NCBI GenBank assembly: GCA_965213675.1
Contig: OZ243916.1
Span: 3,328,001 to 3,392,000, forward strand
Reading direction: 5' to 3'
DNA length: 64,000 nt
DNA from: an uncultured Candidatus Binatia bacterium
GTDB taxonomy: Bacteria; Desulfobacterota; Binatia; UBA9968; JAJDTQ01
Part shown: in pieces, positions 8,500 to 59,298 of the stretch
Layout: each line of letters begins with the position of its first letter
Position numbering within the stretch: position 1 is the stretch's first letter
Translations under genes and position numbers: made by a program
The notes under the pieces: model-generated
Databases searched by the model: none
Told to the model about the DNA's origin: nothing
The model's input: the letters and a program-made list of their open reading frames with translations, nothing else

Positions 8500-9802
<1,303 letters not shown>

Positions 9803-10618: not shown

Positions 10619-10628
10619 GAGATCGGAA

Positions 10629-10742: not shown

Positions 10743-10770
10743 CTCCAGCCGCGGTTTCGCAGGAGGAGTC

Positions 10771-11154: not shown

Positions 11155-11189
11155 TGGCTCGACGAGCATAAACCGGAACAGGAGCATTC

Positions 11190-11600: not shown

Positions 11601-11613
11601 GAGGAGATCGTTA

Positions 11614-12240: not shown

Positions 12241-12267
12241 TCAGCGGTGAACCGTGTTGGAGATCCC

Positions 12268-13293: not shown

Positions 13294-13296
13294 GCC

Positions 13297-13713
13297 ATGC
13301 GGCACTTGAAGAGCGGCAGAAAACTGAACCGTAGCGCGAGTCACCGGCACGCCTTGTGGCGCAACATGACCACCTCGCTGTTGCGGCACGATCGCATCAC
13401 CACCACCGACGCAAAGGCCAAGGAACTGAGGCGTTGGACTGACTGGCTGATCACCCTCGGCAAGGACGGAAGCCTCCACGCCCGGCGCCAGGCGCTGGCC
13501 TTCGTTCAGGACAAGGCCGTCGTGGCGCGTTTGTTCAACGAGCTGGGACCGCGTTTTCGCGACCGCCACGGAGGCTACACGCGGGTCGTGAAGGTGGGCC
13601 GCCGCCGGGGCGACGCGGCGCCGCTGTCCATCATCGAGTTGATACCGGCCGCCGGCGAGGCGACGGCGGGCGGTGACGCGGCCGGCGCGCCGTCCACGAC
13701 GAGCGGAACCTGA
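13297..13713 (+). CDS. rplQ: 50S ribosomal protein L17
   Basis: [24 protein letters not shown]. Confidence 0.97.
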
Positions 13714-13795
13714 GAGACGCTCCCTCGCCACCGCGCGCCGCGGCCGCGGGCCGTGCCCACCGGCAACCGTTGGAATGCGCCGTTCAGGGGTGTCT

Positions 13796-14326
13796 ATGGC
13801 CAACCATCGAAACGCGACCGCCCGCGGCAACGTCTACTTCAGCCGCGGGCAGCTCTTCGGCGTAGCCACGCTGTTCGTGGGCGTGGCGGCCGTTGTTTTC
13901 TTCTTCGGTATCCTCATCGGACAGAGCATCGAGGAGCGCAAGCTTGCCGGCGAGGGTTACGCCGGGATTACGGTCCCGGTGAGCCCGGGCGCGCCCGGCG
14001 ACGACCAGGAGTTGACCTTCTACGACACGTTGACCAAGACGGCTCCGCCCAAGGCCGGCGCGCCTGTCCAGATCCCGCCGGCCGAAGAAGTCAAGACTCC
14101 ATGGACCGTGCAGGTGGCCGCCGCGGAAACCCGGGCGAAAGCCGACAGCATGGTGGCGAAGCTGAAGGAGCGCGGCTACGAGGCGTACGTCACGTCCGGG
14201 CAACTCAACCGAAGGACCTTTTATCGCGTTCGGGTAGGACGGTACCGGAACCGCCAGGAGGCCATGGTGGATCTTCAGCGGCTCAAGAAGGACAAGTACG
14301 ACCCGATGATCATGGGGACCCAATGA
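13796..14326 (+). CDS. SPOR-domain membrane protein (FtsN/DedD-like)
   Basis: N-terminal TM helix, LTFYDTL motif, C-terminal WTVQVAA...YRVRVG SPOR domain. Confidence 0.85.
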
Positions 14327-38414: not shown

Positions 38415-38548
38415 CCTGAAGGCGTCAGGTGTCCAGCGCCTTCGCCACATGGATATTTTGAAGTTATCTCTATTGCATGGTTATTATCCATGTATGGACG
38501 CTTTCAATGAAACATCACCTTGGTTTGTTTCGAAACTGTGCTATTTTA

Positions 38549-39391
38549 ATGGTAATGCGCCATCAAAGAACGCCACGTCTGAAACCACTCCTGGATGCGG
38601 TCCCCCCCGGCTTCATGGTGGACACGCGGTGGCTCAGGGCCCAGGGCATCGACCCCAAGTCCATCCACGACTATGTCGCCCGCGGATGGCTTGAGCGGGT
38701 TGTCCGCGGGGTCTACCGCCGTCCGCTGCCGGAAGGCGCACGGGGCGCCTACGGAGAATCCTGGGAAATCCCCCTTCTCTCCCTGCAATGGCTCATGAAG
38801 TACGCCGTGCATCTGGGCGGAGAGAGCGCCCTCGACGTGCTCGGCTACGCGCATTACCTGAGACTCGGAGAAAAGCCCCGCGTTTGGTTCTACGGCGAGG
38901 CGCCGTCCTGGATCAAGCGGCTGCCGATCGGGACGCAGATCGTGATGCGCCGGCGCACGCTCTTCGGCGACGACCCGCTGGGCATCGAGGATGCCGGTTC
39001 CGGGGCGGACGGACCGGCGGTCGGCGTGTGGCGCTGGCCTCTCAAGGCGTCGTCTCCGGAGCGAGCCGTCCTGGAGGCCCTTGACGAGCTGCCGCGGCGC
39101 GCCGGCTTCGAGAACCTGGACAAGGTATTCGAGGGGCTGGCGTCGCTCCGGCCCGGGCGGCTCATGGCGCTTCTGACGGCTTGCCGCAGCGTAAAGGTGC
39201 GCAGGCTGTTCTTTGTCTTCGCGGACAGGCACGGGCACGAATGGCGCAAGCACCTGGACGCATCGAGGATCGACTTCGGGTCGGGACCGCGGGCCTTGGT
39301 GGAGGGCGGCAGGCTTCACCCGGACTACCGCATCTACGTGCCCCGGGCACTGGCGCGCGGGAAACCTGCGGCGGCGGACGGCAATGCTTGA
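38549..39391 (+). CDS. Type IV TA antitoxin, AbiEi family
   Basis: N-terminal wHTH (WLERVVRGVY), SSPERA.LE, C.SVKV.RLF; overlaps toxin start. Confidence 0.85.
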   Translation: MVMRHQRTPRLKPLLDAVPPGFMVDTRWLRAQGIDPKSIHDYVARGWLERVVRGVYRRPLPEGARGAYGESWEIPLLSLQWLMKYAVHLGGESALDVLGYAHYLRLGEKPRVWFYGEAPSWIKRLPIGTQIVMRRRTLFGDDPLGIEDAGSGADGPAVGVWRWPLKASSPERAVLEALDELPRRAGFENLDKVFEGLASLRPGRLMALLTACRSVKVRRLFFVFADRHGHEWRKHLDASRIDFGSGPRALVEGGRLHPDYRIYVPRALARGKPAAADGNA

Positions 39392-41150: not shown

Positions 41151-41627
41151 CATATTGCCCGTTATCACGGTCGCGAGATAACCATTCGTTACCCGTTCCA
41201 TCCTCGTGCTGGCGAGACGATGGCGGTCATCCGGCGCCACCGGTTCCGTGGCATGAGCGTCTTCGTTGTCAGGCAGCCCGACGGAACGCTGGCGCAGATC
41301 CCTGCATGGATGTGCGCCACGGAGGCGGGCGCGATGTCGGTGACGAAGTCCCCACGCCTTCCAGTGGCCGAACTGCACACGCTTCGCATTACCGTCGACG
41401 CCCTTCTATCATCGCTCTCCAAACCCCCCAACGAAGGAGAGCCACATGGGCAAGAACGGGATTCGTCGTCAGAGAGATCTGCTGAAGCTGTTGGAGCCAG
41501 GGCCGGTGCTCGCACCGGAGTTGCTCAAGTCGGTCGTGCCGCTGCTGGCGACACTGCTGCTGCAAGCGGTGGAAGCCGAGGCGCAAAGCGCCGCGGAAAC
41601 GGTGACGGTGGAGGGAGCGAGCAATGA
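41151..41627 (+). CDS. Small accessory protein of the recombinase element (resembles Y4bD/DUF5372-type); natural start absent in integrated state
   Basis: IRYPFHP..G and DGTLAQIPAWM motifs; first in-frame ATG (41220) lies after YPFHP; family name from recall. Confidence 0.55.
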   Translation, partial: HIARYHGREITIRYPFHPRAGETMAVIRRHRFRGMSVFVVRQPDGTLAQIPAWMCATEAGAMSVTKSPRLPVAELHTLRITVDALLSSLSKPPNEGEPHGQERDSSSERSAEAVGARAGARTGVAQVGRAAAGDTAAASGGSRGAKRRGNGDGGGSEQ

Positions 41628-41631
41628 GTAA
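41446..41631 (+). CDS. Small hypothetical protein preceding the recombinase
   Basis: AGGAG RBS, 61 aa, overlaps recombinase start. Confidence 0.4.
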   Translation: MGKNGIRRQRDLLKLLEPGPVLAPELLKSVVPLLATLLLQAVEAEAQSAAETVTVEGASNE

Positions 41632-43577
41632 GGTCTCGGCCGATCATCTCTCCCGTAAGGCGTTTGTCTACATCCGTCAATCCACCCCGGACCAGTTGAG
41701 ACACAATCACGAGAGCCGGCGGCGGCAGTACGGCCTGACGGTGAGAGCCCGGAAGTTGGGATGGGGCGAGACGGTGGTGATCGACGAGGATCTCGGCCGT
41801 TCGGGCAGTGGCACGGCACGGCCGGGGTTCGAGCGGTTGTTGTTGGCGATCTGCGAGGGACGGGTGGGCATTGTCCTGGCGTTGGAGGCTTCACGCCTCG
41901 CCCGCAACGGCCGCGACTGGCACACGCTGCTTGAGTTCTGCGGGCTGGTGGGGTGTCTGCTCGCCGACGAGGAGGGCGTCTACGACCCGCGCCTGCCCAA
42001 CGACCGTCTCCTTCTGGGCATGAAAGGGACCCTGTCGGAGCTTGAGCTGTCCACGATGCGTCAGCGCTCGCTGGAGGCGCTGCGCCAGAAGGCGCGCCGT
42101 GGCGAGCTCCTGCTGAACGTCGCCGTGGGCTACGTGAAGGTTCCGCGAGACCGGATCGTCAAGGATCCCGACCGGCGCGTGCAGGAGGCGATCAGCTTGG
42201 TGTTCCGCAAGTTCTCAGAGTTCCAGAGCGTTCGGCAAGTCCATCTTTGGCTCCGTCAGGAGGAAGTGCTGCTGCCGGCAGTGGACGGCGAGCCGGGTGA
42301 CGGTGGAAGGCGGCCGCAAGCGGGTCAGCCGGGGCCATCGCCGGGACCGCGAGGCCTGGGACGTGTTGATCGTGGATCACCATGAGGGTTATGTTTCCTG
42401 GGAGGAGTTCGAGAGGAACCAGCGTTTGATCGCCGACAACGCCAACTGCAAGGGGTTGATGACACGGGGCGCGGTTCGCCGTGGCGATGCCCTGCTGGCG
42501 GGGCTCTTGCGCTGCGGTCACTGCGGCCGGCGGTTGCATGTTTCCTATAGCGGCACCGACGGCTACTGCGTTCGCTACAGTTGCCGCGGGGCGCACCTCA
42601 ACCATGGGACTCGGCGCTGCATCTCGTTCGGCGGCGTTCGTGTGGACTCGGCGGTTGCCGAGGAGGTGCTACGGCTGTTGAGCCCGTTGGGCATCGAGGC
42701 CTCGGTGGAAGCCGTGACGATGAGGGAGGACAACGTCGCCGAGACGCGGCGCCAGGTGGAGCTGGGTTTGACCCAGGCGCGCTACGAGGCGGATCTTGCG
42801 CGTCGCCAGTACGATGCGGTGGACTCGCAGAACCGGCTGGTGGCGGCGGAGCTCGAGCGCAGATGGAACGAGCGGCTGGCGGAGGTGGCGAGGCAGGAAG
42901 AGCGGTTGGCGGCCACGGCGGCTGTCCAGCCGGATGCCTTGTCCGGCGAGGACAGAGAGCGGCTGCTGGCGCTCGGGGGCGACCTTGAGACGGTCTGGGA
43001 GCACCCCGGCGCCACGGCGGAAACCCGCAAGCGGATACTGCGCGCGGTGCTGGAAGAGATCGTCGCCACCTCGGCCGAGGACCGTATCGAACTCCTGCTG
43101 CACTGGCGCGGTGGCGATCACACCCGCCTGAGCGTTGCCCGCAACCGCACCGGGCAACATCGGTGGCGGACCAGCGCGGAGGTCGGCGAGCTGATCCGCG
43201 GCCTTGCCCGACAGCAGCCGGACAGCGCCATAGCGGCCACGCTGAATCGGCTGGGCAAGCGGACCGGCCGCGGCAACGCATGGACGGAGATGCGGGTCCG
43301 CAGCTTCCGGTGCCATCACACGGTTCCCGTGTACCGGCCGGGCGAGATGGGGGAACGCGGAGAACTCACTCTCAAGGAGACTGCGGGCAGGCTCAGGGTC
43401 AGCACGATGACGGTCCTGCGTCTCATCAGCGCCGGAACGATTACGGCGCGGCAACTCTGCAAGGGGGCGCCCTGGGCGGTGCCGGAGGCGCAGATCACGG
43501 GACTCGAAGGCGCGGAGGTGGTTCCCCACCATCCGCTAACAGCCAACACGGATCAGAAAGAACTGGATTTCCAATAA
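41624..43577 (+). pseudogene. Large serine recombinase, frameshifted near 42290
   Basis: YIRQST catalytic Ser, DLGRSG, SRLARN; second frame carries CGHCG Zn ribbon, coiled coil and HTH; junction appears to lack the NPxYAG segment. Confidence 0.85.
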
Positions 43578-43609
43578 CGTAGAGAGGTGTGCATTATGAA
43601 GCCCGACTC

Positions 43610-43950
43610 GGCGGGCCGATAAAAATGACGTTTTCGCGGCGATCCAGGAAGCCGAGTTCGTGGAGGCTCTCGATCTGCTCGCGCTTGATGCTGGGCTGGA
43701 AGGCGAAGTCGAACTGGGCCAGGGTCTTCACGGCCGGCAGCCGCGACGAGCGCATGGCGGTCTGGAGGCGGCGGTTGTTGCGCAACCCGATCTGGGCGTC
43801 CAACAACTGCTCGATAGCCTCGCTGGCGGTGGCCGCCCCGCTGTCGGCCTGGGCCAGGACGTCGTCGACGGCCTCGAGCGCGCCCGGCATCTTCAGGTCC
43901 GCCAGCATCGCCCGCAGCCGGTCGCGCCGGTTGCCTGCCTCGGCCCTCAT
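43610..43950 (-). pseudogene. istB: istB 5' fragment
   Basis: KTLAQFDFAFQPSI...ENVIFIGPP; ATGA overlap with istA. Confidence 0.9.
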
Positions 43951-44969
43951 GACACGGCCTCCGCATAGGCGCTGAGCGAGCGCCGCTCGACGTCTACGGT
44001 GACGGGCAGGGGGCGCCGGGCTTGCTGTGGAAGCGTGTGCATACCAAGGCGCCGATACGGGCAACTCGCCAACGGCAGCAGCGCCTGTAGCTCGTCACGC
44101 TCGAAGCGGTCCACCGGGCGCTCCCTGGTGGTGCCGTGCCAGCGCCGGTTCGCGGTTCCCTCAAGCCACAAGCGCACCTGCTCGTTCAGGTCCTCGTCGT
44201 TCAGGAACTCCCGGCCGTAGAAGAAGTTGTTGCGGATGTAGCGGATCGGGCGCTCCACCTTGCCCTTGGTTTGGGCTCGGTACGGCCGGCATGCCCGAGG
44301 CCGGAACCCCCAGTGCGCGGCGAACCGTAAGAAGTCCGCGTTCAACACCAACTCGCCCCCGCCCGCGCGGCCGTCCGACACCACCACCGAACGCATCTGG
44401 TCGAACTACAGCTCCTGCGGCACCCCGCCGAAGCACTCGAAGGCGCTCTCCAGCCCTTCGATCAGCACTGCCATCGTCTGCCGCCTGTAAAACCGCAGCC
44501 ACAACAGCCGGGAGTGGCTCAGAACCGTCACCAGAGCGTGCCGCCGCCCCCAGGGAAGCGTGAACGTCGCAAAGTCCACCTGCCCCTGCCGTCCCGCCGG
44601 CGTCTCGAACCGCACCACCGCCTCCGCCGTCTCCCGCGGCCGTACCGACCGAACGTACTCCCTCACACGGACGTACCCGCCCGTGTACCCCGCCCCTCGT
44701 ACCTCGTCGTATAGCCGCTTCGCCGACAACCGCGGATACTCCTCCAGTCGCGCCTCGATGATCCCCTTGTACGGATCCAGCTTGTGACACACCGCCGGTC
44801 TCGCCCTGTACCGCGTCCCGCCTCCCGACAGATCCCGGTCTAACTGCCCCGTCTCCACCCACTCGTGGATCGTCCGGCGACTCACCCCGAACCGCCGCGA
44901 CAGCTCCGTCTTCGTTACACCCCGTTCCAGATAGTGCCTAAGCAGCATCCTCGTCTCCCATCCGTGCAT
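43947..44969 (-). pseudogene. istA: IS21 transposase IstA with in-frame TAG at 44406-44408
   Basis: RFETPAG.QGQVDF, PQEL*FDQM, KGKVER; both ORF halves share a frame. Confidence 0.9.
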
Positions 44970-45089
44970 CTGTGCTCCGCTCCGTTCCTGTTGCTCTTGC
45001 CAACAGCGTGGACCCGAGCACTCACACCGGCAATCAATCTGTGCAGTTTTCGATTGCCATAAATGGGAAATTTACAGTTGCCACCAACA

Positions 45090-45285
45090 ATCCACACCAA
45101 ACCGTCGCGACAACTCCGCCCTGGTCACGCCTCGTTCCAGATAGTGCCTTATCAGCATCCTTGTCTCCCATCCGTGCATCAGTTCGCCGCTCCATTCCTG
45201 TTGGCTTTTCCCAACAGACTGGCCAACGTACACCTCCTCGCAATCTTCTATGTGCGACATCTTCGATTGACACAAATGGGACATT
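45090..45285 (-). pseudogene. Left-end relic of a second (outer) IS21 with the first ~30 istA codons
   Basis: MHGWETRMLIRHYLERGVTRAELSRRFGV (ATG 45179) duplicates the inner istA start; truncated IR 45252-45285. Confidence 0.8.
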
Positions 45286-45467: not shown

Positions 45468-45570
45468 CAAGCCATTGATTTTGTTAGAAACGTCTGTACA
45501 CCTTTCAGGCTCTGCATCTCCTTATTCTGTTATAACTACAATAATTGTATGAATAGTGTTGGCAACTATG
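45468..45570 (+). promoter_or_regulatory. AT-rich leader of the conjugation operon with an IHF-consensus site and palindromes
   Basis: CAAGCCATTGATT (45468-45480) fits the reverse IHF consensus; TGTACA 45495-45500, GTTATAAC 45529-45536, TACAATAATTGTA 45537-45549. Confidence 0.4.
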
Positions 45571-45617
45571 TGATTGTCGTGCTAGACTCTCAGCACTGAC
45601 CATGAGGAGGACCATAA

Positions 45618-45812
45618 ATGGCGAGAAAACCCACGATCCGCGAGCTTGAACAGCTCTTGGAGTCCGAAGAGGATACCCCCATCGAAATACTGCCGAACGG
45701 CGAGATTCGCGCCCGGGGGGGGAGCGATGCCGCAGAGCGGGGCTACAAGAAGCCTCTCACAATGCGAGAGGACCTCGGCGGCGAGTATGGGCGAGGGGGG
45801 ATCCGGGCATGA
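45618..45812 (+). CDS. 64-aa small protein, candidate peptide modifier
   Basis: Strong GAGGAGG RBS, ATGA coupling to next gene; C-terminus DLGGEYGRGGIRA. Confidence 0.75.
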   Translation: MARKPTIRELEQLLESEEDTPIEILPNGEIRARGGSDAAERGYKKPLTMREDLGGEYGRGGIRA

Positions 45813-46183
45813 ATCTGACAAGGGTTCGCCATGAGATCGCGGCCGCTCAGCAGTACTTCGACTACGTGGAGGGCCATCCAACCCCTGAAGGAGGCGTGAT
45901 TGCGTTGATCGCCTTGCAGACAAGCAGGGATGTGTACACGATGGCCGTCTCCTTCCCGGAGTCTTACCCGAACGGGATGCCGGAGGTGCATGTCAGGAGG
46001 CCCGCGTTGCGACCATCTCCCCACAGGTACACGGACAACAAAATCTGTTTCTTGCATCCGCGCATGTGGAACCCGGGGCGCCACAACCTCGCGTTCGTGA
46101 TTCAGCGAGCGGCGAAGTGGTTCGCGAAGTACGAGGTATACCTCGAGACAGGAAAATGGGCCGGCGTCGAAATTAAGCACTAG
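45809..46183 (+). CDS. Prokaryotic E2/UBC-like protein
   Basis: FPESYP..MP, PHRYTDNKICFL, WNP: UBC YP...P / H-x7-C / W.P pattern. Confidence 0.75.
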   Translation: MNLTRVRHEIAAAQQYFDYVEGHPTPEGGVIALIALQTSRDVYTMAVSFPESYPNGMPEVHVRRPALRPSPHRYTDNKICFLHPRMWNPGRHNLAFVIQRAAKWFAKYEVYLETGKWAGVEIKH

Positions 46184-46187
46184 TACG

Positions 46188-46718
46188 ATGGCGATCGAAT
46201 TCAAGCCATTGCCGATGATGGCATTGCGAAGCAGGCCCGGCGAGGTCCTGGATGAGGTGTCCCGAGATGGCGCAGCGTTCCTCATCGAGAGAAACGGGCA
46301 ACAGAAGGCTTGTCTTGTACCGATATCGTACTTCCTTCCAGACATTCAGACGTCCCGCGTCGCGGAGGAGTTGGACAAGATCATCGACTCGAACGAGCAC
46401 TACCGGATCACAATCAGCGGCCAGCGGGAGATTCAACTCATATTCCGGGAGTTCAGTGGCGAAACGCAGGTCGACGTGACGGTAACGCTACCCCACGGCT
46501 ATCCGAACAAAGCGCCGGTTGTATACGCGGCGCCGATCGATGACGGGTGTCCACACCGTTGGCCGGATGGGACGTTGTGCATATACGGTGCCGTAGCTGT
46601 GTGGAACCCAGGAAAACACGACGTGATGCACGCGGTGGCGCTGTTCAGACGGTGGATCCAGCACTACTCGGTTTGGCGGCAGGCCGGACAATGGCCGACG
46701 GAGGGAACTGAACCATGA
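46188..46718 (+). CDS. Phd/YefM-like DNA-binding domain fused to an E2/UBC-like domain
   Basis: N-term LRSRPGEVLDEV..DGAAFLIERNGQQKACLVP; C-term LPHGYP..AP, PHRWPDGTLCIY, WNP. Confidence 0.7.
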   Translation: MAIEFKPLPMMALRSRPGEVLDEVSRDGAAFLIERNGQQKACLVPISYFLPDIQTSRVAEELDKIIDSNEHYRITISGQREIQLIFREFSGETQVDVTVTLPHGYPNKAPVVYAAPIDDGCPHRWPDGTLCIYGAVAVWNPGKHDVMHAVALFRRWIQHYSVWRQAGQWPTEGTEP

Positions 46719-47566
46719 AGGGTCGGTTGTTCGCGAGGATCGAACAGCTATTCGATGTGAAGGCGTTCGAAGACCTTTGGGTGTTGATTGCAGGGTGCGG
46801 ATCGGGCGGTGGCCAAGTGGCGCTGCAGTTGGCCATGTCTGGAGTGAAGAAGTTCATCCTGGCGGACACGGATAAGCTGGAAGTGGAAAATGTTATCCGG
46901 CACGTCTGCGGGATCCGGTACCTGGGTTGGAAGAAGACGGCGGCCCTTGCTGACGTCTTGAGTGACCGCAACCCGCAGATCGAAGTCAAAGAATTTTACG
47001 GCGACGTAACAGCGTGGCCGAGACTGGCAGAGGAGGTCGAGCGCGCGAGCGTTGTAGTCTTGGGGACGGACAACGAACCGAGCCGGTATCGGCTGAACGA
47101 GGTCTGTGTGGAAACGGCGACGCCGTTCACGGTTGGTCGAGTCTTTACGCGAGGAATTGGGGGTGAGGTGTACTCCTACAGGCCCGGGATCGGCGGCTGC
47201 CTGGCCTGCCTTGAGGGGCTTCTTGAGCGGAGCCAATACCGCGACGGTGTCAGGGAAATCGACCTCGTTTCGGAGGAGGAGCGGCAGAAGGTGTACGACC
47301 TTGAAATCGAGGAGATCAAGGACTCGCCCGGCCTATCGGTGGATATCGGGTTCATCGCAGCCTTCCACACGCGGTTCACTTTGGACGCACTGGGCCACGA
47401 AGCGGAGTCCCCACCTAAGTTTATGACGCCGATCGACCATAACTACCTAGTGTGGGGAAATCGAGCCGTGTACCCGTTCTCGAAGAACTTCGAACTGCAG
47501 CGCATGAAGCTGCCACCGCAGGACGGATGTCTGGTTTGTGGAGGACAAGATGAAGGCCAAGAGTAA
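46715..47566 (+). CDS. ThiF/MoeB-family E1-like adenylyltransferase
   Basis: GCGSGG, D.D...N..RH, K, GTDN..SR, Zn pairs CLAC and CLVC. Confidence 0.88.
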   Translation: MKGRLFARIEQLFDVKAFEDLWVLIAGCGSGGGQVALQLAMSGVKKFILADTDKLEVENVIRHVCGIRYLGWKKTAALADVLSDRNPQIEVKEFYGDVTAWPRLAEEVERASVVVLGTDNEPSRYRLNEVCVETATPFTVGRVFTRGIGGEVYSYRPGIGGCLACLEGLLERSQYRDGVREIDLVSEEERQKVYDLEIEEIKDSPGLSVDIGFIAAFHTRFTLDALGHEAESPPKFMTPIDHNYLVWGNRAVYPFSKNFELQRMKLPPQDGCLVCGGQDEGQE

Positions 47567-48467
47567 GGTGCGGGAGGTACGCTTGGAGATCCCGGGAGTC
47601 GTCCTGGAGAGCGTGTTCGAGGAGTGCGACCGCTATGACCGCGAAGAGACGGGGGGGCGCGTGGTAGGCCATTTCACCATAGATTTCGGGACGCTGGTGG
47701 TGCACGTCGGGGGAGTGATTGAGCCGGGTCCAAATGCCCACCGCACAAGCACCAGCTTCTTTCAAGACGGCGATCACCAAGCTGAGGTGTTCCGCCAACT
47801 CGAGGCGGAAGACCCATCGATCGAGCATCTTGGCAACTGGCATACACATCATGTGAACGGATTTCCGAGGCTGAGTGCAGGCGACGTGGCGACCTATCGC
47901 CGGATCGTGAACCACCAGTTACACAACCTGGATTTCTTCTACGCATTGCTTGTGACGAATAGAAACGAAGGCCGGACCGGACTGGACCGATATGCAGTAC
48001 GGCACCACGTGTTGTTTCGTGGTGAAGAGGCCGTCCACGAAATCCGACCGGCCGATGTACACGTAACGGTCGGGCCGAGGATCTGGCCAAAGGAGGCAGA
48101 CTCTTCCACACAAGCTCCTGGCGCAGGTGGCGCAGAGGACGACGGGGCGCGCGGGATTGTTGAAGTACGGGGGCGGGACCAAAGTGTCCTAGGCGTGCTG
48201 TGCCCCTCGATGGAACCCCGGGTGTCAAACCAAACGGGAACGTTCTTTTGGAAGGGTTCGCTGCCGTTAATCGACGGGTCCACGGTAGAGATTCGGGTCG
48301 CCGAAGTCGAAGACGACGGCGGACTGCTCTACTACCCCATCGTCTCAGGCGTGTCGGCGGATGTGGCTGAGTTGTGCGAAACACCATTCCCGAGCGCGTC
48401 CCACGCGGTCCGTGCGTTGGAGTCGCAGATAAATCGGGAGATTTACGAGTCCGCGATAAGGCGGTGA
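47550..48467 (+). CDS. JAB/MPN metalloprotease with C-terminal extra domain
   Basis: EETGG, GNWHTHH...LSAGD JAMM motif; GGAGG RBS before ATG 47550. Confidence 0.82.
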   Translation: MKAKSKVREVRLEIPGVVLESVFEECDRYDREETGGRVVGHFTIDFGTLVVHVGGVIEPGPNAHRTSTSFFQDGDHQAEVFRQLEAEDPSIEHLGNWHTHHVNGFPRLSAGDVATYRRIVNHQLHNLDFFYALLVTNRNEGRTGLDRYAVRHHVLFRGEEAVHEIRPADVHVTVGPRIWPKEADSSTQAPGAGGAEDDGARGIVEVRGRDQSVLGVLCPSMEPRVSNQTGTFFWKGSLPLIDGSTVEIRVAEVEDDGGLLYYPIVSGVSADVAELCETPFPSASHAVRALESQINREIYESAIRR

Positions 48468-48477
48468 GGGCCAAAAT

Positions 48478-49302
48478 ATGGAAGTGTTGACGCTTTACGT
48501 CGGACAAGGGAATTTCGCCGTCATCCGCCACGGTAGGCAGGCTATCGCAGTGGACACTCGGTGGCTTGCTGACCAATCAGACGATATCGAGTCGACGGTG
48601 GGCCGCTTCCTGCAACGGCGGGAACTTGTGGGCGTCGTGTTGACCGGGTTTGATGACGATCACGCCGATCCCGTCGGGCTGGACTGGTTTCTTGAGAACT
48701 ATACGCCCGGCTGGGTGATGTACCCAAAATACTACAAGGATACCGACAACGCGGAAGCGGTCTTCAACGTGGTTCGGAAGCACGAGCGGCGTCGCCAGGG
48801 CACAGCAAACCCGCTTGAGCGCGTTTCTGTACGGCTTGATCGGCTGGAGTCCCGGTACCTCGATGATCTGTCGGAGGAATTCCAGCTAGAGTTGTTCTCA
48901 CCCCACGTCGAGGACATGGACAGCTCTAACAACTGCAGCATCGTGCTGAAGGTGGAAGGAATCGGTCCGGGCGGATTTACATACTTGGTTACGGGCGACA
49001 CGGAGGTCCCCCGGTGGGACCGGATCGTCCAACTTTTCGACGACGCGTTGGACTCGGACGTTCTGGCGGCGCCACACCACGGATCGAAAAACGCCGCTCA
49101 CCCTGGGATGGTCTTGGCGGTCACACCGAACACGGTGCTTATCAGCGCGGGAGTCGACAACCAGTACGGGCACCCGGACAGAAAAGCGGTGCAGTTGTAT
49201 CTGCGGGTGGCGAAGCGCGTATTTCGGACAAACGTGCGGAACGGAATTTCGCTTCTCACAAGGCGAAACGGCGGGGAGTTCCAGACTACCCGTGTGCGTT
49301 AA
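48478..49302 (+). CDS. Metallo-beta-lactamase-fold hydrolase (ComEC/Rec2-like)
   Basis: VGQG, TGFDDDH, NNCS, TGD, APHHGS, NQYGHP. Confidence 0.85.
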   Translation: MEVLTLYVGQGNFAVIRHGRQAIAVDTRWLADQSDDIESTVGRFLQRRELVGVVLTGFDDDHADPVGLDWFLENYTPGWVMYPKYYKDTDNAEAVFNVVRKHERRRQGTANPLERVSVRLDRLESRYLDDLSEEFQLELFSPHVEDMDSSNNCSIVLKVEGIGPGGFTYLVTGDTEVPRWDRIVQLFDDALDSDVLAAPHHGSKNAAHPGMVLAVTPNTVLISAGVDNQYGHPDRKAVQLYLRVAKRVFRTNVRNGISLLTRRNGGEFQTTRVR

Positions 49303-49462
49303 CGGTCGATGGAATTTTCTTCTGCCCATTGGCGCCACCAACATCCTGGCGCTCTTAGGCGAGCCCTAGACTGAATGATTGGGAACACTTCCAATGCGTT
49401 GGGGCTCTTCAACACAACGGTGTGGAACGGGAAAAGCCCAAACAACCCGAGAGGAACGAATT

Positions 49463-50587
49463 ATGACCTTTGAACTACCAACACGCGGGCTCGTTTTTTG
49501 GCCAGTCGGAAACGGTGACAGCACCACCATCGTCATCGACCCCAAGACCTGTCTCCAGATAGACCTCAACCACCTCGAGAAATCCGAGGACGACGACGCC
49601 TCTTGGCCCGTGGTTGATGAACTTGTCAAGCACCTGCCCAAAGTCAACCGCCGCCCCTATCTCGCTGCGTTCGCGCTCACACATCCTGATCAGGACCATT
49701 GCCGGGGCTTCGCCAAACTCCTCAACGAAGTCGATATCGGTGAATTGTGGTTTACACCTAGAGTGTTCCGTGAGTACAAGAAGGACCTCTGCGACGACGC
49801 GGTGGCATTCAAGAAGGAGACGGAACGCCGCGTTCAGAAGGCTATCGACGCCAAGCACGCCCCAGGCTCGGGCGACCGCATTCGGGTCTTCGGCTACTCC
49901 GACCTGCTGGAAGAGGACGACTTCAAGGATTTCCCCAAGGATCGCCTAACTGTCCCCGGTAATGAACTTACCGTCGTCGACGAGAAGGACTTGGCTGGCC
50001 ACTTCCGCGCCTTCGTCCACGCTCCGTTCAAAGATGATGACGCGGGCGAGCGGAACGATACGAGCCTCGCCATGCAAGTCACGCTCCACGCTGGCCCGCA
50101 AAGACTTCGCGCGCTCCTTCTTGGAGACCTTCCCTACCCGATCATCAAGCGCATCTTCGCGATTAGTGACGCCGAGGACCTCGCCTGGAATGTGCTCCTC
50201 GCACCCCACCACTGCTCGAAGGCCGTAATGTACTGGAAGAATGACGGCGACGACGACGAGAAGCTCAAAAAGCACATCGTCGACGAAATGGACGAGGCGG
50301 CACAGGACCCGAATCGTGTCGTATCCAGCTCCAATCCCGTGCCGTCATCCAACAAGGCTGGCGACAACCCGCCTCACGCCAAGGCAAAGACGCAGTACGA
50401 GACCATCACCGACTCCTTCCTGTGTACGATGGACCAGGATGAACCTATCGTGGCTGAACTTGACCACCAAAGGATCGTTCTCGCCGGGGTTGCGACGGCC
50501 TCCAAGTCCGCATCGCAGGCCGCAGACGAAGCGCGCGGCTCAAACAGACCCCCCGACGGCGCCCACACCTACGGCTGTGGCAAATGA
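49463..50587 (+). CDS. Metallo-beta-lactamase-fold protein of the type found beside E2-E1-JAB fusions
   Basis: VGNGDS, THPDQDH, NDTS, GD, APHHCS, PPH; C-terminal tail HTYGCGK; GAGG RBS before ATG 49463. Confidence 0.85.
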   Translation: MTFELPTRGLVFWPVGNGDSTTIVIDPKTCLQIDLNHLEKSEDDDASWPVVDELVKHLPKVNRRPYLAAFALTHPDQDHCRGFAKLLNEVDIGELWFTPRVFREYKKDLCDDAVAFKKETERRVQKAIDAKHAPGSGDRIRVFGYSDLLEEDDFKDFPKDRLTVPGNELTVVDEKDLAGHFRAFVHAPFKDDDAGERNDTSLAMQVTLHAGPQRLRALLLGDLPYPIIKRIFAISDAEDLAWNVLLAPHHCSKAVMYWKNDGDDDEKLKKHIVDEMDEAAQDPNRVVSSSNPVPSSNKAGDNPPHAKAKTQYETITDSFLCTMDQDEPIVAELDHQRIVLAGVATASKSASQAADEARGSNRPPDGAHTYGCGK

Positions 50588-53500
50588 GTAATGGCTACAC
50601 GCTCGCTGGCGAACAGCTAAGGGAGATCGCCGAAACATCGGAAGGCACCGTTCAAATTCATGACGAAACCACACGGCCAAGCGGCTACCGCCAGTTCGAC
50701 GTAAGCATGCGCTTCGACGGCCTTCAACGTGTCGAAGACGGACTTGCAGTGCGAGCCCGTGAGCCATTCCGCGTCATTGTTTCACCTGCCTTCCCTTTCA
50801 AACATCCCGTTGTCGAGACGCCTCACTCTCGTTTCGCCGGCTTCCGGCACGTACAGTGGCGGCGGAGCCCCTGCCTGTACCAAAGCTCCTCCGATTGGGG
50901 CCCAAGCGACGGCATGTACGGCTTCATTACGCGCCTCGACGCCTGGATACGCGACGCCGCACTTAACAATCTCGACCCGGACGACGCACCCCTCCACCCA
51001 CCAGTCGAGTACCCCACGGTCCATCGCCTAATTGTGCCCAAGGCAAATACGCCGGCGGTCTCTGGCACGCCATGGTTTGGATTCGCCAAACTCCGCGAAA
51101 GGAACCATCGCACCGAGATCATTGGATGGGAAGAGAACAGCCAAGAAGGCTCTGACTTCGCGCCTGCAATCCTCCTCCACGAGAATCTTCCCTTCGAATA
51201 CCCCGAAACTGTCCACGCTCTACTGAAAGAACTCGAATTCCACGGAATCGACTATGTGCCCTTTGTCTTCCGACTTGCCGCCCAGGCACGACGCAGCGAC
51301 GCAGGCACACCGCTAACCGTAGTTCTTGGAACTCCGATGCGCCGCGTCGACCCGGGGGGGCCTACCCTTCAGCACTTGGCCGTGTGGGAGATTTCTGCCG
51401 ACGACGCGGACAAGCTGCGCGAGCTGAACATCTCCGCGCAGTTCCGCGGGTCACCGCGATGGGAAGCCGCGACGACGGCGGTCGCCGAATGGGCTGTGTT
51501 TGCCAAGGTGGGGTGGTGCATCGTCCGTGAGATGCGGCCCGAAGTGACCAGCAGACGCGACCATTCATCAGCCATGGCTTGGTTTCGTGGAAAGCGTGTG
51601 GCCATCTGGGGTTGCGGCGCCGTAGGCACTCACGTGGCGGAATCGATTGTACGCGCCGGGGCCAGAACCGTTGAACTCGTCGACAACAAGACTGTTGCAC
51701 CCGGTCTCCTAGTACGGCAAGTCTTCGAAGACGCCGACATCGGAGAGTTTAAGGCCCAAGCGCTCGCCGAACGACTTAAACGGATCGAACCTGACCTCGA
51801 GACACATGTTTCAACCGACGACCTTGTCCTACGTATCATAGGTCCACACCCGGTCCCGGAGGTGGACTTGATAGTCGACTGCACAGCTTCATCGGCCGTT
51901 CAGACAGCCCTCGAGCGAGCACTCCAGGCCGTCGACTCACGCCCCGCGATAGCTGCTGTATCCATCGATAGCCAAGCCGCCACGGCCATTGCCACTCTCT
52001 CTTCGCGCAACCACAGCGGTGCGACCCTCGACCTTGTTCGCCGGCTCAAGCTGGAAGCATGTAGCACACCGGCGCTTTCGAAGGTCCTTGAGGCATTCTG
52101 GCCAAGAACAACGCCAAGTGAGCGCTTTCAGCCAGAGCCCGGCTGTTCGGAACCGACGTTCATCGGTTCCGACGCAGATCTTGCCGCGCTATCTGCGCGC
52201 ATGCTGAATTCCATCACTCACGCTATTGGAAACCCCCGCGATGGCCACACGGGGGCAGGTTGGTTGTTGGAAGAATCGGGAGCGTTACGTGGTTTCGCGT
52301 GGCCTCCGGACCACACCCTGAGGGATGAGGGGCGGGGCTACTCCGTCAGGGTATCTTCACTGGCCGCGCGGGAAATGCGAGGATGGGCTAGGCGTTCCGC
52401 ACGTACGGTCGGCTCAACAGTCGAGACGGGCGGCCTCGTCTTCGGCGAGCTCAACGAAGCCGCGACCGTTCTCTGGGTAACAGATGTCGAGGGACCGCCA
52501 CCCGACAGCGAGGCAGCTGGGGATCATTTCACCTGCGGCACGGACGGCATGGAAACCGTTGCCCAAGAAAGGCAACGCAGGTTCCGTGGATCTGTAGACT
52601 GCCTCGGTAGTTGGCACACCCACCCAACGTCAGCACCCCATCCAAGTCGCGTCGACATCGGCGCTGTCATACAGCTTCTCGCCAACCCGGGTTCGACCCG
52701 TCGAACTTGCCTTGTTTTGATCCTCTCTGGTGACCCGGATGACCCAAGACTGGGCGCGTATGCCTTCAGAACAAAACTAGTCGGCGAAACGCTCATCCGC
52801 ATCCAACCAAGCGCGGCTGCAACCGCGTCCCTTGGGCCAAAGCCAAAGAAACCGCGCAACATCGGAACTGCCCTCTCAGGCGGAGGCTCGCGCGCCATCG
52901 CGTTCCACCTCGGGTGCCTGCGCGCCCTGCACGACCTCGATCTACTCAGCCGTGTTCAGGTAATTTCGAGCGTCTCCGGCGGGTCTATAATCGCGGCCAT
53001 GTACGCCTATTCTTGCGACTCGTTTCGGGAGTTTGACGCGCGTGTTGTAGAGCTTCTTCATCGAGGATTCAAACGGGATATCTTCCGCGAGGTGTTCAAG
53101 CTGGTTTCAATTGGGAAGATCCTGCGACGCCATGTCAGGGCGACCGCGTCTTTCCTATCTCGCACGTTCCTTCGGCTACTTCACGCCGTCGTGAGACCGG
53201 TTGTGGCTCATCGCCAAGGCCCGCCGCCGACCCGCACGTTCAGCCGCACGGAGGCGTTTCGCGACATCATTGCCACCTCCCAATTCGGTGACACCATCGT
53301 ACGCGACGTCGCCCGACATTCACTCCATACGGTCATCAATGCCACAGAACTACGAACCGGCTCCGCATTTCGGTTCGGAAGCAGCCAAAGCGGCTGCTGG
53401 CGATTCGGCACGATTCCCCCCGAAGACGCTCTGGTTGCAGACGCCGTGGCTGCCTCGGCGGCGTACCCGGCACTCTTCCCGGCACTCGAGCGCGAGTACC

Positions 53501-53994
53501 GCTTCACGAAGAACGGGTCCAGCACCGATGCCGCGCGCGTTCTGCTTACCGACGGTGGGGTCTTTGAGAACCTCGGCGTGAATCCGATGGAGCCGGGCCG
53601 GACACCTTCGGTCACCACTAACGTCTTCGACCCCGACTACATTATTTGCTGCGACGCGGGTGCTGGTCTATTCGATGATGACAGCTACCCGACACGTTTG
53701 CACACCCGGATATACAGATCGTTCCTCACGGTCTTTCGCAAGGTCCAAGACGCCACCCGAAAACGCCTACACCACCTTGCCGACGCCGGGGAAATCTCCG
53801 GCTTCGCGTTATGCTATCTCGGGCAGCAGGACAATGCCTTGCCCTGGGTACCAGCAGGTCTTCCTAGAAGGGATGAGGTTCGAGATTACCCTACCGACTT
53901 CGCCGCGATGTCAACGGAAGACGTCGATCGGTTAGCTCTCCGTGGAGAACTCCTGATGAGGCTTCTCGTTGCGTACTACCTCCCAGACCTCTAA
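50584..53994 (+). CDS. E2-E1-JAB-patatin four-domain fusion
   Basis: E2: FPFKHP, HVQW..SPCLY; E1: GCGAVG, DCTAS, EPGCSEPTF; JAB: ETGG, WHTHP....PS.VD; patatin: LSGGGSR, SSVSGG, DGG. Confidence 0.85.
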   Translation: MSNGYTLAGEQLREIAETSEGTVQIHDETTRPSGYRQFDVSMRFDGLQRVEDGLAVRAREPFRVIVSPAFPFKHPVVETPHSRFAGFRHVQWRRSPCLYQSSSDWGPSDGMYGFITRLDAWIRDAALNNLDPDDAPLHPPVEYPTVHRLIVPKANTPAVSGTPWFGFAKLRERNHRTEIIGWEENSQEGSDFAPAILLHENLPFEYPETVHALLKELEFHGIDYVPFVFRLAAQARRSDAGTPLTVVLGTPMRRVDPGGPTLQHLAVWEISADDADKLRELNISAQFRGSPRWEAATTAVAEWAVFAKVGWCIVREMRPEVTSRRDHSSAMAWFRGKRVAIWGCGAVGTHVAESIVRAGARTVELVDNKTVAPGLLVRQVFEDADIGEFKAQALAERLKRIEPDLETHVSTDDLVLRIIGPHPVPEVDLIVDCTASSAVQTALERALQAVDSRPAIAAVSIDSQAATAIATLSSRNHSGATLDLVRRLKLEACSTPALSKVLEAFWPRTTPSERFQPEPGCSEPTFIGSDADLAALSARMLNSITHAIGNPRDGHTGAGWLLEESGALRGFAWPPDHTLRDEGRGYSVRVSSLAAREMRGWARRSARTVGSTVETGGLVFGELNEAATVLWVTDVEGPPPDSEAAGDHFTCGTDGMETVAQERQRRFRGSVDCLGSWHTHPTSAPHPSRVDIGAVIQLLANPGSTRRTCLVLILSGDPDDPRLGAYAFRTKLVGETLIRIQPSAAATASLGPKPKKPRNIGTALSGGGSRAIAFHLGCLRALHDLDLLSRVQVISSVSGGSIIAAMYAYSCDSFREFDARVVELLHRGFKRDIFREVFKLVSIGKILRRHVRATASFLSRTFLRLLHAVVRPVVAHRQGPPPTRTFSRTEAFRDIIATSQFGDTIVRDVARHSLHTVINATELRTGSAFRFGSSQSGCWRFGTIPPEDALVADAVAASAAYPALFPALEREYRFTKNGSSTDAARVLLTDGGVFENLGVNPMEPGRTPSVTTNVFDPDYIICCDAGAGLFDDDSYPTRLHTRIYRSFLTVFRKVQDATRKRLHHLADAGEISGFALCYLGQQDNALPWVPAGLPRRDEVRDYPTDFAAMSTEDVDRLALRGELLMRLLVAYYLPDL

Positions 53995-54256: not shown

Positions 54257-55312
54257 TTAGGTGCTTCTCTTGAGGGCGATGTGGAGCAGTTTCGTTTGGT
54301 AGGTAGCGATGCTGTGATCGCTGAGGAGGCTACCCCATTTGTTCGTCCCATTGAAGATCGCCCGAACCCGTCTGCCCCAACCGACCGTGTAGAGCAGGGT
54401 AGCCCTGGAGAAGTCGCCGTCCTTGCAGTTGGTGATAAATCGCATGTTGCCGCCGTGTTCGTAGCCGGAGAAGTACCGTTCGAGCATGTTGCCGATCCAT
54501 ACGAGGAAGGTAAGGAAAGGGGCAAGGCGCCCTAACGCGCGAAGCCCCTTTGTCAGGAGGGCTATCGCCGTGCCGGTTAAAGGGACCATCGGGACGACGT
54601 CGGCCGAGTTCACGATCCTGTAGACCGGACTCTTGATTTGCCCAAGCCACGCCTCGCTCCCGCTCCGGGGCGACCCGTAGGTGTAGCAGGCGGCAATCTG
54701 TCGCTCCGCGCTCAGGCGTCTGGTGGCAATGGTCGCTACTGCCCCGCCGAGGCTGTGGCCCGTAATGAAAAGGGGCTTGTTCGCAACCCCTTCCATATCC
54801 AGCGCCGCCTCAATCGCATCCTCGACATCATTGTACTGGCCCTGGAAACCGGCATGGACGTGTCCGCCAGTTCGGCTCCGCGCCTTATAGGATTTCAGAT
54901 CAGCCCTGATATCACGTATGGATGTTGATTCCGTTCCCCGGAATGCTAGGACGGCGTGATCCGTACTGTAGGCTACAAAGGCTTGGGTGGCGTTTACGCT
55001 GATAGTTTTCGCCAAGGTCCAGCCGATCTTCTTCAACCGACTACTCAGTCTGGCCTCTTCAGCTTCGTAATCTTGTCCGCAGGCCTTCGTGATGGCTCCG
55101 AGTATCTTCGCGTCAGAGCTCTTCGGCAGTCCTCTCAGGGCACGTTGGACGAGCTTAAGAACGGCCTCTCCCTCGAAGGCGGATTTGTCGAACTTCAGAT
55201 AGGCCAATTCCGACATGTAGGCCATGAGCCAAGCAGCTCGATCGCTGTACGCCTTGCGGTAGTCGGGCATCTTCTTGCCGAGAACCTTATCGTGCAAATC
55301 CTGTTCGACCAT
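54257..55312 (-). CDS. Class 3 lipase-family alpha/beta hydrolase
   Basis: AFRGT, VHAGF, GHSLGG, TYGSPR, DVVP, DH. Confidence 0.88.
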   Translation of the reverse strand: MVEQDLHDKVLGKKMPDYRKAYSDRAAWLMAYMSELAYLKFDKSAFEGEAVLKLVQRALRGLPKSSDAKILGAITKACGQDYEAEEARLSSRLKKIGWTLAKTISVNATQAFVAYSTDHAVLAFRGTESTSIRDIRADLKSYKARSRTGGHVHAGFQGQYNDVEDAIEAALDMEGVANKPLFITGHSLGGAVATIATRRLSAERQIAACYTYGSPRSGSEAWLGQIKSPVYRIVNSADVVPMVPLTGTAIALLTKGLRALGRLAPFLTFLVWIGNMLERYFSGYEHGGNMRFITNCKDGDFSRATLLYTVGWGRRVRAIFNGTNKWGSLLSDHSIATYQTKLLHIALKRST

Positions 55313-58610: not shown

Positions 58611-58661
58611 GAAGCACTCGCGGGTAAACTTCGCCAGATCAAGCATGATCTGATTTGTCTT

Positions 58662-58687
58662 GCATACCAGACAAAAGTCTGGTATGC
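58662..58687. promoter_or_regulatory. Perfect palindrome upstream of lexA, candidate LexA operator
   Basis: GCATACCAGAC-AAAA-GTCTGGTATGC, overlapping TTGCAT-N17-TATGCG. Confidence 0.7.
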
Positions 58688-58695
58688 GCATCCTC

Positions 58696-59298
58696 ATGAC
58701 ACCCTTCACTCCACCGGGGGAGACCCGGGACAAGGTTTACCGGTTCGTGCGCAGGCGGACCCTGGAGGAGCTTCCTCCCACGGTTCGGGAGGTCCAGGAG
58801 GCGTTCCGATTCAGGGCGGTGCAGACAGCCCGGCAGCACCTGGAGCGGCTGGTGGCCGAGGGGCGGCTGGTCAAGGCGCACGGGAAATCCAGGGGCTACC
58901 GACTGCCCCGGGAGCCCGGGACGCTGTTGGTACCGTTGCTGGGGCGGGTGCAGGCCGGCGGTCTGCGGGCGGCCATCGAGGAATGCGAAGGCTACATCCC
59001 GGTCCAGTCACGGGGCTCGGAGGAAGTGTTCGGGCTCCGGGTCCAGGGAGAAAGCATGACCGGAGCGGGCATCCTTCCCGGCGACATCGTCGTCGTGAGG
59101 CAGCAGGCGGAAGCCGCCTCGGGGGACATCGTCGTGGCCCTGGTGGGCGACGAGGCCACCATCAAGAGGCTACGCCTGCGCCAGAGCCGGATCGAGCTGC
59201 ATCCGGAGAACCCGGCTTTCGCAACCATCGTTCCCAGGGCCGATGAGTGCACCGTCCTGGGCAAGGTGGTGGAGGTGAGACGCTATCTGGAAGGATAG
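58696..59298 (+). CDS. lexA: SOS repressor LexA (imu-cassette associated)
   Basis: PPTVRE wHTH, VQAG cleavage site, GESM Ser, ATIK Lys; start 58684 or 58696. Confidence 0.95.
   Translation: MTPFTPPGETRDKVYRFVRRRTLEELPPTVREVQEAFRFRAVQTARQHLERLVAEGRLVKAHGKSRGYRLPREPGTLLVPLLGRVQAGGLRAAIEECEGYIPVQSRGSEEVFGLRVQGESMTGAGILPGDIVVVRQQAEAASGDIVVALVGDEATIKRLRLRQSRIELHPENPAFATIVPRADECTVLGKVVEVRRYLEG

Follow-up and report, generated by a model that had tools for sequence, protein, structure and literature searches.

The E1/E2/JAB systems of bacteria provide the best view of the origin of ubiquitin signalling. To our knowledge, all characterised cases fall into two kinds: Bil and Bub conjugate a beta-grasp protein, CBASS and 6A-MBL the tail of an enzyme of their own. 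Based on the analysis of a 64,000-nucleotide stretch of DNA from an uncultured Candidatus Binatia bacterium (contig OZ243916.1; hereafter the window), a set of six genes, g1 to g6, at positions 45618 to 49302 is described here. A first-pass annotation of this DNA had listed six closely packed genes, and all of these open-reading frames (ORFs) are indeed present on the + strand, with intergenic spacings of -29 to +10 nt. They encode, in this order, a short peptide, a stand-alone E2, a Phd/YefM-like domain joined to a second E2, an E1 adenylation enzyme of the ThiF/MoeB type, a JAB/JAMM isopeptidase and a ComEC-type MBL-fold hydrolase. We consider the chances about even that g1 to g6 are the core of an unnamed, mobile conjugation cassette of the lineage of E2-CBASS, type II CBASS and 6A-MBL, which acts against phages, most likely in the manner of abortive infection, with the g1 peptide as its tag. 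The kind of system is known, namely bacterial conjugation defence by E1, E2 and JAB proteins; new in kind, if confirmed, would be a peptide modifier that is not a beta-grasp protein.

In Table 1 (row 6a) of Iyer et al. 2006 (PMC1779556), 6A is an E2-E1-JAB triple protein beside an MBL. The anti-phage activity of 6A-MBL is credited to Van den Berg et al. 2024 in the cited passage of a review (PMC13276650), and the excerpted text of a Corbett-lab preprint (PMC11601596) puts 'Type II CBASS/Pycsar/MBL' together as pathways where the enzyme conjugated by a fused E2-E1 belongs to the system itself. The cassette resembles 6A-MBL in the order of its components (E2, E1, JAB and then an MBL-fold hydrolase) and in having neither a CD-NTase nor a beta-grasp gene. 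The best defence-family NCBIfam match of both g4 (44.5 bits) and g5 (44.4 bits) is the Cap2_3 model NF058523, and a 6A-like module often adjoins the cassette (11 of 50 loci). However, the E2, E1 and JAB of the cassette are separate genes, a Phd-fused E2 and a dedicated peptide are present in addition, and g6 is a 274-aa ComEC-type MBL without the conserved Gly and short tail. The Cap2_3 criterion (at least 320 bits in one polypeptide) is not reached by g4 or g5 but is reached by the neighbouring g8, and the 38.7 bits of g6 to NF058524 lie under the cut-off of 220, which the neighbouring g7 passes. With these scores there is no full match to a named system. In the libraries scanned (Pfam, NCBIfam of June 2026, PADLOC-DB 2.0.0 and PHROGs) the six genes are not found as a named system, and PHROGs has no family for g1, g2, g3 or g5; PADLOC recognized single CBASS-type components without a cyclase. 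None of the eight ORFs g1 to g8 matched a CD-NTase or beta-grasp family (Pfam, NCBIfam, PADLOC), in agreement with the first-pass annotation, which had recognized neither type of modifier. No description of the six-gene layout was found in the literature searched; supplementary operon tables, which lay outside that search, might list the cassette. The earlier suggestion of a candidate new defence system thus stands as far as the layout is unnamed. The cassette is, however, not wholly unprecedented, because of its kinship to E2-CBASS and 6A-MBL, the adjacent 6A-MBL/patatin genes and a variable seventh gene, all three of which had been missed.

According to the cited parts of PMC12948482 and bioRxiv 2022.05.25.493364, a C-terminal helix and three-stranded sheet of the E2-CBASS cyclase (residues 352-398) recruit the E2, the active site of which takes up the cyclase tail (400-407, ...Y-G-E). 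Beyond the conserved Gly, one residue is cut away by the E2 itself, which goes on to form a thioester and then an isopeptide (same parts of both sources). This substrate module (helix, small sheet and trimmed Gly tail) resembles g1 in size and in predicted elements, the E2s of the cassette match the PADLOC CBASS-E2 models and have relatives in PF26395, and their catalytic Cys is invariant. On the other hand, E2-CBASS is a 'short' type II CBASS of CD-NTase, effector and single E2, in which the E2 is the sole ubiquitin-type enzyme and the CD-NTase its substrate, whereas the cassette has an E1 and a JAB, two E2 paralogues and no CD-NTase. Its presumed substrate is a free 57-aa peptide, and no sequence similarity of g1 to a PDB chain was found. 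With type II CBASS the cassette shares homologous E1 and JAB proteins (PADLOC E1-E2 models down to 4e-25; the g5 JAB domain matches Cap3 with Z 16.4 and an intact JAMM motif) and the patatin-type effectors near it. It differs in its split genes, in having neither a cyclase nor a recognized nucleotide-sensing effector domain, and in an E1 that lacks the crossover-loop Cys.

The Bil modifier loses its tail, which exposes a Gly (cited parts of PMC11601603 and PMC11601596). Both Bil and the cassette have separate E1, E2 and JAB genes and a small, separate modifier gene. However, the Bil modifier has at least one beta-grasp domain whereas g1 has none in its low-confidence model, Bil has one E2 and no MBL, and the structure of BilC is a poorer match to g5 (Z 13.4) than that of Cap3 (16.4). 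In Bub (6E), pre-proteins of a ubiquitin-like protein (Ubl) and an E2 are cleaved after a conserved Gly, and BubCD has a Cys-less crossover loop with an invariant Tyr, as stated in the excerpted text of PMC11601596; the cited part of Iyer et al. 2006 (PMC1779556) describes inactive, RWD-like E2 domains for operons of this class. The peptide-E2 fusion P0185 recalls the Bub pre-proteins, and g4, like the Bub E1, lacks the crossover-loop Cys and has an invariant Tyr (Y194). However, the Bub E2 uses Ser, whereas the Cys of the cassette E2s is invariant, and neither the beta-grasp Ubls nor the BubE protease of Bub is among the cassette genes, with no match to DUF6527. The ComEC-like MBLs of other defence systems (Avs1a, Lamassu LmuA-MBL, DRT-associated MBL and trypsin-MBL) are matched by g6 weakly and below threshold. 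In trypsin-MBL modules, as the source excerpt describes them, a paired protease activates a latent MBL; the partner in the cassette is a JAB metalloprotease in a conjugation set and not a trypsin-like protease. From Pup/UBact the cassette differs in that g1 has no Pfam Pup match and no PafA/Dop ligase is among the recurring genes.

A genome scan with g3, taking one genome per species, gave 24 loci, and the order and strand of g1 to g6 are kept in all 24 (tblastn). Of these loci 21 are complete, and the remainder lack g1 and half of g2 (L014), end inside g6 (L016) or have g5 and g6 in pieces (L020). A metagenome scan starting from the g1 peptide gave 380 confirmed stretches. Counting from the best 80 of the 380, wherever there was room for the gene in question, g1 was followed by g2 in 72 of 72, g3 in 59 of 59, g4 in 47 of 47, g5 in 36 of 36 and g6 in 32 of 32 loci. 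Because order and strand are retained across the genome and metagenome loci, the arrangement is far beyond chance, and the six-gene synteny extends well outside the window. Clustering of the flanking ORFs of the 24 loci revealed no further gene common to all, and no cyclase, exporter, proteasome or PafA-type gene is among the recurring clusters. L014 (about 8802-10213) is a decayed copy, in which an unrelated opposite-strand gene has taken the place of g1 and of the first half of g2.

The two E2-like ORFs are both E2 by sequence profile. g2 (45809-46183, + strand, 124 aa) matches the PADLOC CBASS-E2 model PDLC00862 (5.7e-13) and has the invariant residues H72, C80 and W87-N-P-G-x-H92. With the profile of its family (24 members), 98 PDB sequences were retrieved at E<=1; UBC E2 enzymes make up nearly all of the 60 listed, and the best among the matches listed is of the UBE2W type (4.4e-4). 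The segment ...P-H-x-Y-x-N-x-x-I-C aligns with the HPN...Cys region of the PDB E2s, the catalytic Cys included. The sole 'Cyclase' match, PDLC00816, covers model positions 457-542 of 542 and is aligned to the E2 part of g2. g3 (46188-46718, + strand, 176 aa), as had been supposed, is a fusion of a Phd/YefM-like domain (2.8e-5, under Pfam's cut-off) with an E2 (PADLOC E2 model, 4e-8). By hhalign (99.1 %, E 4.8e-19) its C-terminal half is a paralogue of g2, and the Cys of the second E2, C131, is invariant. Among 90 %-identity clusters g3 has 332 relatives at E<=1e-3, and relatives of g3 carry the precomputed annotations PF26395 (named E2-CBASS) and PF02604; this annotation covers the relatives, and g2 and g3 themselves were scored by the PADLOC E2 models. 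Alone, g3 matches the PDB weakly (UFC1, 0.059). One library protein (P0131) is a g3-g4 fusion, with the E2-E1 order of Cap2. By profile only, then, g2 and the C-terminal half of g3 fit the UBC superfamily, with the canonical Cys after an HPN-like motif.

The identification of g4 (46715-47566, + strand, 283 aa) as a ThiF/E1 protein is borne out by a ThiF match of 8e-27. Its ATP and Zn motifs do not vary in the family: the GxGxxG nucleotide loop, R62, D119 and two pairs of CxxC. In all 23 family sequences the crossover region 166-224, which we take to hold the catalytic Cys of ThiF and canonical E1s, lacks Cys, whereas Y194 in the same region is invariant.

g5 (47538-48467, + strand, 309 aa) may, going by the homologues, start at the ATG at 47550. 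It had been called a JAB protease, and this call holds: g5 scores 25.2 bits against Prok-JAB (cut-off 25), and the JAMM motif is intact and invariant (E37, H102, H104, S113 and D116). In the confident structure model (pLDDT 82), the JAB domain is connected through a disordered linker (183-203) to a C-terminal domain of alpha-beta4-alpha-alpha topology. The former matches the structures of an archaeal Rpn11 homologue (Z 17.2), of Cap3 (9ild, rmsd 2.4 over 142 residues) and, more distantly, of BilC, a bacterial Ubl-deubiquitinase. For residues 193-309 seven structure matches were obtained, six of which are FANCL (Z 7.5), RWD (6.8) or UEV (6.8) domains, and a conserved Cys is absent from this part. 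The model therefore suggests that g5 carries a third, Cys-less E2-like domain resembling RWD/UEV.

g6 (48478-49302, + strand, 274 aa) was rightly recognized as a ComEC-like MBL: it matches TIGR00361 (ComEC/Rec2) at 7e-26, under the cut-off of that model, and the ComEC/Rec2 MBL domains in the PDB at 4.4e-11. The residues G57-x-D59-x-D61-H62 (motif 2, G-x-D-x-D-H), H143, D174, H200, H201 and H232, with the Asp and His metal ligands among them, are invariant, and PADLOC gives weak matches to the defence MBLs LmuA, RTasMBL and PDC-M48B. g6 is likely to be a nuclease-type effector or a target. The g6 C-termini (RVA, RVR, WVK, LVG and others) have no conserved Gly or Ala end; because the end is not conserved, the g6 C-terminus was rejected as the conjugated end.

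The 64-aa ORF g1 (45618-45812, + strand) is a genuine gene family, with 578 representatives at 50 % clustering (E<=1e-3), 244 of them at 1e-10 or better. The conserved part comprises residues 1-57, ends in L53-G54-G55-E56-Y57 and is followed by a variable tail; invariant among 24 aligned copies are, among others, I24-L-P-N-G-E29, R31, K45-P46, T48, E51 and L53-G-G-E-Y57. The motif LGGEY is present in 134 of the 150 best representatives. The number of residues past the Tyr, among the 140 representatives with a motif hit, is zero in 13, 1-13 in 102 and at least 15 in 25, and the ORF stops directly after LGGEY in L012, L019, L020 and a Mesorhizobium plasmid copy. Because this end is invariant, the earlier idea of peptide tagging is strengthened. 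In a natural peptide-E2 fusion (P0185), ...LGGEY is followed by two residues and then by a g2-type E2. Modelled alone, g1 has a helix (7-15), a hairpin (22-32) and a disordered remainder; this model, the confidence of which is low (pLDDT 64), is not a beta-grasp. No Pfam family, Pup included, matches g1, the g1 profile matches no PDB sequence at E<=10, and no usable match was found in the ESM Atlas. Neither Foldseek (E<=0.001) nor VIA wide (Z>=2) found a PDB structure for the model, a result that is uninformative on the fold at such low confidence. A complex prediction for g4 with g1 residues 1-55 scored 0.02, which gives no answer either way. As a literature term, LGGEY returned nothing relevant by title. 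The possibility that g1 is a split-off tail of a 6A-type MBL found no support (hhalign probability 0.07 %).

Behind the constant core, the first same-strand gene after g6, here called the seventh gene, is an exchangeable module. It was counted in 50 loci with at least 1.2 kb past g6 (24 genome loci including the window, and 26 metagenome loci; the identical pair L025/L026 was counted once, and L016 and L049 were omitted for lack of room). The seventh gene is a patatin in 13 of the 50 loci, a 6A-like MBL followed by a Cap2_3-like gene in 11, another MBL in two and a singleton in four; one locus has none, with a biotin synthase on the opposite strand. In the other 19 loci it belongs to four unrelated families of about 160-325 aa (8, 6, 3 and 2 loci; for example L047 7868-8542, L003 13159-13920, L036 11736-12404 and L019 13469-13954, the last a 161-aa hydrophobic protein). 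A patatin domain is fused to the 6A-like module or next in line in eight of the 11 cases. Together with the 13 direct patatins, a patatin domain is thus found within about 5 kb downstream in 21 of the 50 loci. Each of the four small families has two to five hydrophobic segments (19-residue, Kyte-Doolittle >=1.6), as do three of the four singletons at least one, whereas the eight proteins of the window have none. Eighteen seventh-gene membrane proteins gave weak matches only in Pfam and PADLOC, and the four small families are, from their sequences, candidate new membrane effectors. An exchange of modules that attack membranes or act as nucleases, at an otherwise constant core, is also seen in known abortive-infection systems. 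A 422-aa ORF in L024 was considered as a patatin and rejected, with nothing found by phmmer.

Because g1 has a similar length, similar elements, a Gly-Gly with removable residues and adjacent E2s of the same family, it can be seen as a free-standing module of the E2-CBASS type that acts as a tag; we infer such tagging, and a defence role for the cassette, as follows. g1 would be made as a pro-peptide, the 57 conserved residues of which would play the part of the C-terminal module of the E2-CBASS cyclase. The residues past Gly55 would be removed by the JAB protein g5, or else one of the E2s would work as a Cys protease, an activity that has been shown in E2-CBASS. The E1 g4 would then adenylate the exposed C-terminus, and the peptide would be handed over, directly or via Tyr194 (a route argued for Bub), to the catalytic Cys of g2 and/or g3 and from there to the target. 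This target may be the system's own MBL or seventh-gene effector, for which CBASS offers a precedent of priming, or, by analogy with Bil, a protein of the phage. g5, aided by its RWD/UEV-like domain, would reverse or limit tagging, and killing or arrest would be executed by the MBL hydrolase g6 and the seventh gene, which would either act on membranes, as a patatin or a small membrane protein of the multi-pass type, or be an entire 6A-MBL module. The Phd-like domain of g3 may dimerise g3 or bind an operator. At somewhat less than an even chance, g1 would be an E1/E2-conjugated tag without a ubiquitin fold, made up of an E2-recruiting helix, a hairpin and a Leu-Gly-Gly end, and thus an intermediate between conjugated enzyme tails and free Ubls, while two E2s and a JAB-RWD editor would control nuclease and membrane effectors. 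If g1 is the tag, a minimal modifier without much ordered structure would suffice for an E1-E2 cascade, and the cassette would represent a new anti-phage family with exchangeable nuclease, phospholipase and membrane effectors.

Several observations weigh against such a tag. E56 and Y57 are conserved as strongly as the two Gly residues, both among the 24 loci and in the 134 of 150 best representatives, which is unusual for residues that are merely cut off; Tyr57 could therefore itself be the mature end, or g1 may never be processed. The variable tail of g1 overlaps the start region of g2, and its variability may thus be unrelated to processing. No similarity of g1 to a Ubl, to Pup or to the tails of 6A-type MBLs was detected. 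The lack of a crossover Cys in the g4 family makes it unlikely that this E1 forms a thioester in the canonical way. The RWD/UEV matches of the g5 C-terminal domain have Z values of 6.4-7.5, a range that according to the tool can reflect a common arrangement. Finally, the adjacent defence genes are contextual evidence only for the defence role.

The invariant E56-Y57 and the many ORFs that end in ...LGGEY, where the end may function as it is, agree also with the idea that g1 is a regulatory subunit or pseudo-substrate, a plug or decoy on the E1, E2 or JAB until infection, and that the conjugated protein is g6, the seventh-gene product or an E2. The mostly disordered model of g1 alone would fit such a role, and the CBASS and 6A-MBL kin conjugate their own enzyme (excerpted text of PMC11601596). 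In the 6A-type MBLs adjoining the cassette, a conserved Gly is followed by a tail of 0-4 aa. Among 11 aligned ends (g7, L011-L015, L017, L023-L025 and L032), one subgroup ends in ...P-R-A-G plus 0-3 aa (6 of 6), and the other, including g7 (...H-T-Y-G and a 3-aa tail), in ...[Y/F]-G plus 2-4 aa (5 of 5). These ends match the pattern expected of a trimmed, conjugated C-terminus, as proposed for the MBL pathways. However, the g6 C-termini have no conserved Gly or Ala at the end, the stand-alone patatin C-termini examined end without Gly, the Leu-Gly-Gly with its short variable tail has the classic look of a modifier precursor, and the peptide-E2 fusion P0185 exists. We therefore regard a purely regulatory g1 as rather unlikely.

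The distribution of the cassette is patchy. According to the record titles, the hosts of the genome loci are Gammaproteobacteria, Acidobacteriota-type orders, Binatia, Gemmatimonadota-type metagenome-assembled genomes (MAGs), Nitrospirales, Elusimicrobiota, Alphaproteobacteria and one Methanosarcinales MAG. In the latter (L019, about 9677-13954) the entire cassette is present, with proteins 38-65 % identical to those of the window, which reflects either cross-domain transfer or a binning error. The cassette occurs in only two of the 25 same-genus genomes searched, full-length matches in none of the 16 same-order genomes, and g3 copies are up to 82 % identical in amino acids across phyla. It is single-copy in its own genome. 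The plasmid search gave one record (L108), pMspAR10a of Mesorhizobium sp. AR10 (115261-120167), a 750-kb plasmid of a cultured strain on which the cassette and a patatin adjoin an IS30 transposase. RefSeq gives the proteins there only generic names, in order: hypothetical; ubiquitin-conjugating enzyme E2; Phd/YefM antitoxin; ThiF family adenylyltransferase; hypothetical; hypothetical; and patatin-like phospholipase. This copy is a practical source that makes the cassette directly testable. A search of viral contigs with the g3 profile gave 18 pattern matches, none of which was confirmed.

Such a distribution bears on whether the cassette serves housekeeping or stress-related protein tagging, for example Pup-like quality control, and not defence. 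For this speaks that g1 is, as we presume, Pup-like in size, in disorder and in having Gly-Gly-Glu near its end. However, the patchiness and the high identity of g3 across phyla, the location in an island bearing insertion sequences (IS), the exchangeable seventh genes of lytic type and the adjacent 6A-MBL genes do not fit this, no Pfam Pup match was obtained, and no proteasome or PafA-type gene recurs. A housekeeping role is thus improbable.

Very improbable, in our view, is that the cassette makes a small molecule or signal resembling a ribosomally synthesized and post-translationally modified peptide (RiPP), with g1 as a leader with a double-Gly site, the E1 acting like MccB or PaaA, the JAB as leader peptidase, and a Glu-Tyr product activating, or handled by, the membrane or patatin partner. 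The g1 layout (55 conserved N-terminal residues, Gly-Gly and Glu-Tyr) and the lack of a crossover-loop Cys in the E1 would suit this, and the best PDB match of the g4 profile is MccB (4.5e-19), with MoeB (1.7e-17), ThiF (5e-17), PaaA (1.2e-9) and Cap2 (2e-9) also among the matches listed. However, the MccB match is not specific, because the scores of MccB, MoeB and ThiF are within 7 bits of one another, and g4 aligns to the adenylation domain of MccB alone, from about residue 111-114 of the chain. No RiPP role is known for two Cys-bearing E2 paralogues and a third E2-like domain; the cassette has no conserved exporter, and the part of g1 past the Tyr is unconserved and often absent.

Directly downstream of g6, the matches indicate a complete 6A-MBL anti-phage system (49379-53994). 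g7 (49379-50587, + strand), outside the six-gene core and in the variable seventh position, is an MBL-fold protein of the 6A-MBL system (NF058524, 280.5 bits, cut-off 220), the true start of which is probably the ATG at 49463. g8 (50584-53994, + strand) is a 6A-MBL Cap2_3 (E2-E1-JAB) protein with a C-terminal patatin; it matches NF058523 (665 positions; 350.2 bits, cut-off 320) over residues 53-707 and Patatin (2.3e-20) at 763-1000. The Cap2_3-patatin fusion is also found in L005, L014, L015 and L017, and a separate patatin gene in L011-L013. In L005 (13375-16114), likewise a decayed copy, the 6A-type MBL gene is broken by an insertion with a 532-aa opposite-strand ORF. That the six genes are merely an accessory to this neighbour and all eight genes one system is highly improbable: g6 and g7 are at most about 160 nt apart with no terminator-like site between them, g7 and g8 overlap, and in 11 of 50 loci the gene after g6 belongs to a 6A-like MBL module, but the other 39 lack one directly after g6, the six genes have their own E1, E2, JAB and MBL, and 6A-MBL by definition consists of two genes (PMC1779556, Table 1 row 6a, and the NCBIfam models). 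In short, the alternatives explain less well than a tagging cassette the combination of three E2-fold domains, catalytic Cys, a Leu-Gly-Gly end and modular effectors.

The setting agrees with the earlier view of an island with toxin-antitoxin (TA) and IS relics. Upstream of the cassette are a gene for an AbiEi-type antitoxin/regulator (PF11459, 1e-37; 38477-39391), a member of an AbiE-like abortive-infection/TA pair, and a serine recombinase in two overlapping ORFs (41624-42385 and 42297-43577). Fragments of IS21 istB and istA (43594-44969) and a second, short copy of the IstA N-terminus (45072-45284) follow on the - strand, and the GC content drops from about 0.67 to 0.55-0.60 near position 45000. 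A weak sigma-70-like promoter match (TTGGCA-18-TAGACT, 9/12) lies at 45559-45588 on the + strand, 30 nt 5' of g1. Its position alone is suggestive, because the number of such sites in the region equals the expectation (3 observed vs 3.0 expected). On the other side, a class-3 lipase gene (9.8e-23; 54257-55312, - strand) is convergent with g8, and farther downstream a LexA-like S24 peptidase repressor is encoded on the + strand (58660-59298).

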